Positions 21,541 to 23,697 of a stretch of DNA of 64,000 nt are shown in pieces. The DNA lies in NCBI RefSeq assembly GCF_000026545.1, contig NC_011601.1. One strand, given 5' to 3'. The position numbers were made by a program, and so were the translations under genes. Position 1 is the first letter of the stretch; each line of letters starts with the position of its first letter. The notes under the pieces are model-generated. The model was not told the DNA's origin and did not search any database. It was given only the letters and a program-made list of their open reading frames with translations. Source of the stretch: Escherichia coli O127:H6 str. E2348/69 (GTDB taxonomy: Bacteria; Pseudomonadota; Gammaproteobacteria; Enterobacterales; Enterobacteriaceae).

Positions 21541-22425
21541 TCAACCCCCGGCGGCGAGCCGAATGCAGTTTGTATGACCCGCCATCTTCAAGCGATTGAG
21601 GGTGCTGTCTGCGTTCTCTTTGCCTTTCACCGGGCCAATCACCACACGATTCCAGCCATTGTTGGTGGTAATTTTTGAGTCAAAGCCTTCGAACGCCAGC
21701 TGAGCACGTACCGTCTCTGCCTGTTCCGCGCCTCTGAACGAACCGCACTGCACCATCCAGCGGCGTTCGTCTTTTTTCTCCGCCGTCGGTTTTGGCGCGT
21801 CAGCGGCACGAGCAACCGGCGCAGCTTGCTGCGGCTTCGACTGCGCGGTCGTGTGCGCAGGGGTTTGCAGCAGATCCTGGTACGGCTGCTGAGTAGAAGC
21901 CGGTTTAGACTGGCGCGGTTGCGCCTGTACCGGCGCGGCTTGCGACGTACGCGTCTGCTGCTGCCAGCTTTGTTCAGTCGTACGCGACTGCTGAGCCAGG
22001 CGTTGCTGCTCCGCTAATTGCTGCGCCTGACGCTGGCGCATATCAGCCTGCATTTGCTCAAGAAGCTGGCGTTGTTCTGGTGTCAGTTGCTCCGGCGTTT
22101 TCACTTCACCACCGGCAGAAGGTTCTGTAGGCGCACGCACACCCGGCTGGCGACTTTCCAGCTCTTTGATGTAGCGCCAGCGTTCTTCTGGTTTTGGTGG
22201 TAGTCCGTTTCCGGTCACTTTCTGGCTTTGCAGCGTCTCGGACTCTTCTTTCTTGTGATGCGTAATGAAGTACAGACCACCGATAAAGGTCACAAGAACG
22301 GCGGCAGCAATAGCGACCATAGCGGGAGAAACCGCAGGCAGATTTCGTTGCTTTTTCCGTGAGGTGCTCTTTTTTCGCCGCGAAGGTGCCGGTTGGCTGC
22401 GGCGTACATAATCTCGTTGTGCCAC
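21541..22425 (-). CDS. ftsN: Cell-division protein FtsN (294 aa; apparently 25 aa shorter than the K-12 protein)
   Basis: ORF MAQRDYVRRSQPAPSRRKK...SPOR domain at the C-terminus; Gln-rich linker appears to lack a block present in K-12 FtsN (319 aa) as I recall it. Confidence 0.9.
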   Translation of the reverse strand: MAQRDYVRRSQPAPSRRKKSTSRKKQRNLPAVSPAMVAIAAAVLVTFIGGLYFITHHKKEESETLQSQKVTGNGLPPKPEERWRYIKELESRQPGVRAPTEPSAGGEVKTPEQLTPEQRQLLEQMQADMRQRQAQQLAEQQRLAQQSRTTEQSWQQQTRTSQAAPVQAQPRQSKPASTQQPYQDLLQTPAHTTAQSKPQQAAPVARAADAPKPTAEKKDERRWMVQCGSFRGAEQAETVRAQLAFEGFDSKITTNNGWNRVVIGPVKGKENADSTLNRLKMAGHTNCIRLAAGG

Positions 22426-22516: not shown

Positions 22517-23542
22517 TTAAGGTAACGCGCGTGTTGATCCCCGGATGATAAGTTCGCAGTCCATTAAACGAGAGCCACTGCCAACGTGTTGCCCCTGCAT
22601 TTGATCAAGCAATAACAGCATAGCTTCCCGACCGATTTCGTAACGCGGCTGCGCGATGGTTGTCAGCGGCGGATCACAAAATTGCGTCAGGTCGATGTTA
22701 TCAAAACCGATTATGGAAAGGTCTTCCGGTACTTTCAGCCCCTGGCGTTTTGCCTGCGAAAGTGCGCCGAGCGCCATCACATCGCTATGGCAGAAGACAG
22801 CAGTAGGCGGTTGTGGAAGATCAAGCAGCTGTTGCATTGCTTTGCTTCCGGCTTCGAAGGTGAAGTCGCCACGGGCGATGTATTGCGGATCAACCATAAT
22901 GCCGCAGCGACGCAGCGCCTGAACGTAGCCTTGCAGGCGGTAGTGACACAGCGGCATCTCTTCGGGACCGGCTATACAGCCAATCCGTTTATGCCCTTGC
23001 TCATATAAATAATTTACTGCATCAAATGCGGCGGTCAGATTGTCGATATGAACTGTAGGCAGCTCCAGTTCCGGTGCAAATTCGTTCGCCATCACCATCG
23101 GCGGCAGATTACGCTGTTCCTCAATGCTGGCATCAAACGGCAGCCTTGAACCCAGCAGCAACATGCCATCAATTTGCTTGGTGATGATCAAATCGATAAA
23201 GGTTTTTTCCTGCTGATTTTGATGCGCACAGTCGCCAATCAGCACCAGATATCCGTGATTTGCCGCCGTAACTTCGATACCGCGAATAATTTCGCTAAAG
23301 AAAGGGTCGCAGATATCCGGGACAATCACCAGAATAGTGCGGGATTCATTACGCTTGACGTTGCGCCCCATAGGCTGTGGTAAATAACCCACTTCCCGGG
23401 CCGCTTTTTCAACCCGATTACGAGTGGTCTGGGAGACTTTATCGGGATTCATTAATGCTCGGGAGACGGTCGCTGTAGAGACTTTTGCCTTGAGGGCAAC
23501 GTCTTTCATGGTCGCGGCAGTTTCCTGCTTCTTCGCTTTCAC
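22517..23542 (-). CDS. cytR: LacI-family nucleoside regulon repressor CytR
   Basis: ORF 22517..23548; the canonical 341-aa protein MKAKKQETAATMKDVALKAKVSTATVSRAL would start at the third ORF codon, recalled as a GTG start in K-12. Confidence 0.93.
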   Translation of the reverse strand: MKAKKQETAATMKDVALKAKVSTATVSRALMNPDKVSQTTRNRVEKAAREVGYLPQPMGRNVKRNESRTILVIVPDICDPFFSEIIRGIEVTAANHGYLVLIGDCAHQNQQEKTFIDLIITKQIDGMLLLGSRLPFDASIEEQRNLPPMVMANEFAPELELPTVHIDNLTAAFDAVNYLYEQGHKRIGCIAGPEEMPLCHYRLQGYVQALRRCGIMVDPQYIARGDFTFEAGSKAMQQLLDLPQPPTAVFCHSDVMALGALSQAKRQGLKVPEDLSIIGFDNIDLTQFCDPPLTTIAQPRYEIGREAMLLLLDQMQGQHVGSGSRLMDCELIIRGSTRALP

Positions 23543-23697
23543 ACTCACTCCTCGCCTGGCACGTCAGGCGTACTACATCCATGTTTACTTCACATCGGCA
23601 ACATTTTTAGCAGATAGCGCGTGAAAACGGTTACAGAATTTTCATGAAAAGTGTGATGAATATTGAATTTTTCGATCCGCCTCGCATCGTGAGCGGT

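Follow-up and report, generated by a model that had tools for sequence, protein, structure and literature searches.

Whether the cell-division gene ftsN of Escherichia coli O127:H6 strain E2348/69 carries a genuine internal deletion, and how such a deletion would have arisen and been tolerated in an essential gene, is the question raised by one locus in the 64,000-nucleotide stretch of DNA analysed here (the window). An open reading frame on the minus strand at 21541..22425, 885 bp long with its stop codon, encodes 294 aa (WP_000068850.1/CAS11785.1), and the initial annotation had set this length against 319 aa for FtsN of K-12. By every testable criterion the ORF is ftsN, an allele of a known gene that is already in public databases. 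It starts with GTG in the ORF list of the window and has cytR on one side and hslVU on the other, and the order cytR-ftsN-hslV-hslU is conserved, as judged from the window ORFs and from annotated E2348/69 records. The protein matches both NCBIfam FtsN equivalogs, PRK10927 with 624.1 bits (curated cut-off 525), in a match that splits in two at the deletion, and TIGR02223 with 362.1 bits (curated cut-off 107.65). The Pfam SPOR domain (PF05036) is found with E = 6.8e-18, and aa 218–294 are identical to residues 5–81 of PDB chain 1UTA_A, the FtsN SPOR structure; the match covers 78 residues of the shortened protein (217–294), with a single mismatch at its first position. It is the single ftsN copy of the strain, at one place per genome. 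As the sole copy of an essential gene in a viable strain, the shortened FtsN would support division in E2348/69. The longest ORF of the neighbouring cytR (22517..23548, minus strand) is 343 aa from a GTG, and the 341 aa (1,026 bp) given by RefSeq in identical E2348/69 records reflect start-codon choice only.

Both protein and DNA alignments with the ftsN alleles of an MG1655 derivative and of strain SCU-115, each 960 bp and 319 aa, contain one gap of 75 bp (25 aa), which is the sole length difference. The K-12 reference is 319 aa rather than 294, so the length comparison and the 25-aa in-frame deletion that had been proposed are both confirmed. Outside the gap, the window allele has no differences from that of SCU-115 and a single substitution relative to K-12, S203T (K-12 numbering; the window has T). 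The absent residues are K-12 132–156, QPTQLVEVPWNEQTPEQRQQTLQRQ, or equivalently 130–154 owing to a flanking RQ repeat, and this is exactly the block that had been named as missing. K-12 FtsN (319 aa; WP_000068828.1, FTSN_ECOLI) is therefore the same gene with the same neighbours and domains, identical over residues 1–131 and 157–319 save S203T. These two parts are fully identical in the common T203 allele WP_000068834.1, from which the E2348/69 protein, hereafter Δ25, differs only in the missing 132–156. Full-length alleles contain the 8-bp sequence GCGCCAGC at gene nt 387–394 and again at 462–469, 75 bp apart, and nt 395–469 are absent from the window. The DNA alignment places the junction at the surviving copy of this repeat, 22032..22039 on the minus strand (gctggcgc on the plus strand), inside the interval 22030–22045 where it had been expected. 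The junction sequence without the 75 bp in E2348/69 reads GCGCCAGCGT, while CAGCCAACGCAGCTGG would mark the undeleted form.

Among 5,426 complete genomes of E. coli, megablast with a 46-nt probe across the junction, in which a match can be seeded by a true junction alone, found three, and a repeat with blastn at word size 11, as a guard against megablast overlooking junctions with a SNP, returned the same three. They are E2348/69 (CP059840.2), ‘E2348/69 variety 2’ (LT827011.1), and a derived construct (LT903847.1); all annotate an 885-bp ftsN with the product WP_000068850.1, and over 6,885 bp the three records and the window share 100% identity. The exact 294-aa protein (CAS11785.1) is present on 18 contigs in a public collection. 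If 75 bp present in the cells had been collapsed during assembly or sequencing, this Gln/Pro-rich repetitive region would be a plausible place for it, being compositionally biased and holding nine families of short direct repeats. However, three complete assemblies, all of E2348/69 or derivatives and deposited under separate accessions, contain the junction, as do several drafts; no perfect repeat with the 75-bp spacing is longer than 8 bp, which is far under the k-mer or read length of any assembler; and the reading frame is exactly kept. Because three complete assemblies agree and only an 8-bp repeat was available, a collapse is excluded for practical purposes and the probability of an artefact is negligible. 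The deletion is real, as had been supposed. In the same set of genomes, two ftsN matches by megablast were on records labelled as plasmids, and 1 of the 5,426 complete ‘E. coli’ genomes had no ftsN match at megablast sensitivity.

A real deletion could still be a recent one. Every complete genome with the junction is a stock or construct of a single strain, with no other close relative among the complete genomes; the next-best match to the locus is 99.7% identical and full length. These observations would fit a loss of the 75 bp during laboratory passage since 1969, which would not be a trait of wild O127:H6 EPEC. This origin is nevertheless rather unlikely, in that every sequenced version of E2348/69 seen has the deletion, including stocks under different accessions, and the same event in six unrelated isolates means that no special laboratory history is needed. 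Whether the origin was laboratory or natural leaves the deletion mechanism unchanged.

The survey of FtsN linker lengths across E. coli that had been suggested for this locus found that length variation is common and that Δ25 is not unique to E2348/69. Four draft genomes encode the very same 294-aa protein as E2348/69; compared with the window, their flanks carry 55–148 SNPs per 6,885 bp and their ftsN genes 4–11 synonymous SNPs. Two further 294-aa proteins (P0024 and P0025) have extra substitutions and the same junction. Together with E2348/69 these make seven backgrounds, 55–165 SNPs per 6,885 bp apart, with one junction sequence in all. Each background other than E2348/69 is represented by 1–3 contigs: nine in all for the four with the exact protein of the window, two for P0024, and one for P0025. 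After removal of nt 395–469 from a full-length complete genome, each of the six draft loci (L007–L010, L016 and L017) has 0 differences in 6,885 positions from such a genome, the full-length twins being O91 RM7190, ATCC 11775, CFSAN061763, SK1144, Rb-3, and CFSAN061770. Since each of the six loci is a full-length genome of its own lineage minus 75 bp, the same deletion arose independently at least seven times. The identical junction at all seven loci, in a species that recombines, could also be read as a single old allele that spread across E. coli lineages through homologous recombination. Such a spread is highly improbable, however: at every one of the 6,885 positions, within the gene and in its flanks, each of the six loci matches a full-length genome from its own lineage; 3–14 synonymous SNPs within ftsN separate the deletion alleles from one another, some of them 7–19 bp from the junction; and import tracts of a few tens of bases carrying only the deletion would be needed. 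In strain 23779 (NZ_CM190130.1, 4806645–4814857), an IS3-like ISEc52 lies within the priA-cytR-ftsN-hslVU-menA interval, which is 8.2 kb long in this strain compared with 6.96 kb.

Recurrent loss of the same 75 bp is best explained by slipped-strand mispairing (microhomology-mediated illegitimate recombination) between the two copies of GCGCCAGC, 75 bp apart, in which one copy would be lost with the intervening DNA and the other would stay at the junction. This mechanism is read from the arrangement of the repeats. Six of the parental alleles have the 8-bp direct repeat and the seventh has a 7-bp one (CGCCAGC), and the 75 bp lost match the distance between the repeats. In the K-12-type allele the right-hand repeat is imperfect (GCGCCAAC). 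A 51-mer of the K-12 type is present exactly in 2,369 of the 5,426 genomes and the perfect-repeat type in 1,613, and all seven events are on alleles with a 7–8-bp repeat and none on the K-12 type, in a small sample found via protein look-up. Exact protein look-up found no Δ25 on the K-12 S203 allele. The distribution across allele types is consistent with a dependence on repeat length, again in a small sample. Secondary structure joining the repeats was considered and dropped: single-stranded DNA folds of the 103-nt parental region contained no hairpin bridging the two copies, and the fold z-scores (−1.1 for the coding strand and −2.1 for the other) give no clear help.

Among spontaneous deletions in E. 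coli, those by slipped strands between short direct repeats form a classic group. The Δ25 event resembles them in its end repeats, in the retention of one copy, in a length equal to the repeat spacing, and in its recurrence at the same site; it differs in the shortness of the repeat (7–8 bp), in lacking an evident supporting hairpin, and in that its mechanism is deduced from sequence. An 8-bp repeat is short for a mutational hotspot. The reciprocal +25-aa duplication was absent on both allele backgrounds by exact look-up in a collection of 15 billion proteins. A phase-variable contingency locus was also considered and rejected, in that the repeat copies are not in tandem, there is no +25-aa duplication, and the deletion is found in only 3 of 5,426 complete genomes.

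The cytoplasmic tail of FtsN binds FtsA, its E domain activates septal peptidoglycan synthesis, and its SPOR domain binds denuded glycans. The published domain map places the cytoplasmic part at aa 1–33, the transmembrane (TM) helix at 34–53, helices H1, H2, and H3 at 62–67, 80–93, and 117–123, the essential domain EFtsN at 75–93, a Q-rich linker at 129–225, and SPOR at 243–319 (PMC7939390). In the window, the cytoplasmic tail and TM helix (22267..22425, minus strand, by the same limits) are intact and identical to K-12, with an AlphaFold2 helix at 34–56, which preserves the bitopic topology with its short basic tail and single membrane helix. EFtsN (aa 75–93; 22147..22203, minus strand; PMC7939390 limits) is likewise intact and identical to K-12, including W83, Y85, and L89, which are invariant in 27 Enterobacterales FtsN sequences. 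SPOR (aa 218–294, K-12 243–319; 21544..21774, minus strand) is intact by its matches to PF05036 and 1UTA_A. The N-terminal cytoplasmic and TM region and the SPOR domain are therefore as they had been described, both being intact in the alignments.

The position of the lost segment can be refined. It had been placed in the Gln-rich linker between the essential region and SPOR, and this position is right; the segment is the conserved start of the linker and not its low-complexity, variable part. Residues 132–156 are almost invariant in alignments of Escherichia, Salmonella, and Citrobacter, and a block at 114–142, LTxEQRQLLxQxQADMRQxPTxLxEVPxN, is conserved in Enterobacterales FtsN down to 31–59% identity; residues 157–205, unlike this block, are hypervariable in the Enterobacterales alignments. 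Δ25 retains 114–131 of the block and loses 132–142, including PTxLxEVPxN (133–142). The retained half (aa 114–131, LTPEQRQLLEQMQADMRQ), which includes H3 at 117–123, lies at 22033..22086 on the minus strand (alignments A4 and A5; AlphaFold2). It is followed by the remaining Q-rich linker, shortened at its N-terminal end (aa 132–217, K-12 157–242; 21775..22032, minus strand) and hypervariable between genera. AlphaFold2 models of full-length FtsN contain a helix at 116–130, a loop, and a helix at 146–182, and those of Δ25 a single continuous helix at 116–155, all with low overall confidence (pTM 0.28–0.29). Compared with full-length K-12 FtsN, the predicted helix-loop-helix after H3 would thus become one helix.

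The linker has been described as long, largely disordered, and flexible, about 70 nm when extended, and it would, as proposed, allow SPOR to look for denuded glycans with the E domain still engaged on the synthase (bioRxiv 10.1101/2024.05.13.594014). In Δ25 the tether linking the E domain to SPOR is shortened from about 149 to about 124 residues. With 25 of about 149 residues removed, ample reach should remain. E-domain-only and SPOR-less FtsN constructs from the de Boer laboratory reportedly placed the activity in the E domain, with SPOR serving mainly in septal targeting. Such engineered truncations are laboratory constructs and often overexpressed, whereas Δ25 is chromosomal, at the native locus, and keeps SPOR. 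The engineered FtsN 1–130, with activity in the E domain (75–93) and SPOR mainly for septal targeting, likewise fits a tolerated internal deletion of the linker (PMC7939390). Overall, it is very probable that Δ25 is a genuine slippage deletion between the GCGCCAGC copies in which the function-bearing parts were kept, and that the allele is functional and near-neutral or mildly deleterious.

Rare in-frame variants are numerous in this tolerant region, and Δ25 is one of them. A homologue search found E. coli and Shigella FtsN proteins of 270, 281, 285, 289, 292, 294, 301, 308, 311, 330, 341, and 349 aa, in which all length changes fall between helix H3 and SPOR. Natural variants besides Δ25 comprise Δ8, Δ11, Δ18, Δ27, Δ30, Δ34, Δ38, Δ49, +11, +22, and +30, all rare and in frame. 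Several of these are bounded by 7–9-bp direct repeats and, like Δ25, are in frame, rare, and located between H3 and SPOR; Δ25 differs in having its own repeat pair, GCGCCAGC, and in its fixation in a prototype pathogen strain that is widely used. Like Δ18, Δ30, and Δ49, it removes the conserved PTQLVEVPWN segment and not the hypervariable part. Microhomology estimates for Δ30, Δ18, Δ27, Δ38, and Δ11 hang on the register of the protein alignment and are probably too low, and they were not relied on.

The full-length SCU-115 gene (L001, 3001–3960) contains nine families of direct repeats with start-to-start spacings of 24, 33, 75, 102, 105, 108, 111, 114, and 198, the spacing of 75 being that of family D3. 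All nine spacings are divisible by three, so any slippage between ftsN repeats keeps the frame. In nature, exact look-up found only part of the predicted slippage products, namely Δ11 (26 contigs for one allele background and 3 for a second) and Δ8 (4 contigs); Δ35, Δ36, and Δ37 were absent from the same look-up, Δ37, in which the E domain is removed, serving as a negative control. Two further sets of records were rejected as variants of this kind. The 284-aa ‘FtsN’ entries (P0005, on 64 contigs, and P0008) have their start called at M36 with the cytoplasmic tail omitted and are not deletions, and the ftsN of APEC E18005 (L015, 3001–3993; NZ_CP126946.1) is not split but is a gene of 993 bp and 330 aa with a +33-bp duplication of the RTTEQSWQQQT unit. 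Three copies of the RTTEQSWQQQT unit are present in a 341-aa protein (P0021), and a 30-aa TPEQRQ...WNEQ unit is duplicated in a 349-aa protein of Shigella flexneri (P0020).

The consequences of Δ25 can be considered against this background. Because the gene is essential and the strain viable, and because the event recurs in unrelated lineages yet stays rare, the allele would be functional and near-neutral or mildly deleterious, and a strong phenotype is not expected. Some cost or a mild phenotype is nonetheless possible on the alignments and structural models, since the residues removed (132–156) are nearly invariant and part of them belongs to a conserved block. From recurrence alone, a mutational hotspot and positive selection look alike. 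An adaptive reading would hold that a shorter or restructured tether, or the loss of PTxLxEVPxN, alters division timing or the activation of peptidoglycan synthases and has been selected repeatedly. The identical change in seven backgrounds speaks for it, as do the conservation of the lost segment across Enterobacterales, which is probably functional for that reason, and the role proposed for the linker in letting SPOR probe denuded glycans. It is unlikely all the same, as very few genomes have the allele (3 of the 5,426 complete ones, all belonging to one strain), with no clonal expansion visible beyond E2348/69, the many other low-frequency deletions and duplications fit mutation pressure on a tolerant region, and the events are limited to alleles with the longer repeat. 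A stronger version is very unlikely: residues 114–142 would be a second, so far uncharacterised functional module of FtsN, and Δ25, Δ18, Δ30, and Δ49 would be selected modification-of-function variants altering the coupling of the E domain and SPOR, in division timing or synthase activation, and not neutral slippage products. Given how rare Δ25 is and how tip-like its distribution, neither positive selection nor a hidden role for the conserved block is the favoured reading; the allele is real, rare, recurrent, and probably near-neutral.

Many laboratories, and volunteer studies too, have used E2348/69 as the prototype EPEC strain, and it has an FtsN 25 residues shorter than that of K-12. The literature search found no paper pairing FtsN with E2348/69 or treating natural deletions of the FtsN linker. 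The allele calls for caution where cell division, the cell envelope, or FtsN-directed reagents are studied in E2348/69; its practical value is modest, and the current understanding of FtsN is unchallenged by it. It is a clean natural case of a recurrent deletion between 8-bp repeats. The natural variants as a whole amount to a free deletion scan, in which, at the native locus, the entire stretch between H3 and SPOR appears to tolerate length changes between −49 and +30 residues, including loss of a segment conserved in Enterobacterales.

Variation in ftsN also extends beyond length changes within one allele type. A common group of E. coli FtsN proteins of 314–315 aa (P0038 on 339 contigs and P0039 on 532; also P0044) has a linker, corresponding to K-12 157–205, that resembles those of E. 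fergusonii and other Escherichia and not that of K-12, and two other proteins (P0027 and P0031) look mosaic. The 314–315-aa group and the mosaics suggest inter-species or deep-lineage recombination within ftsN.
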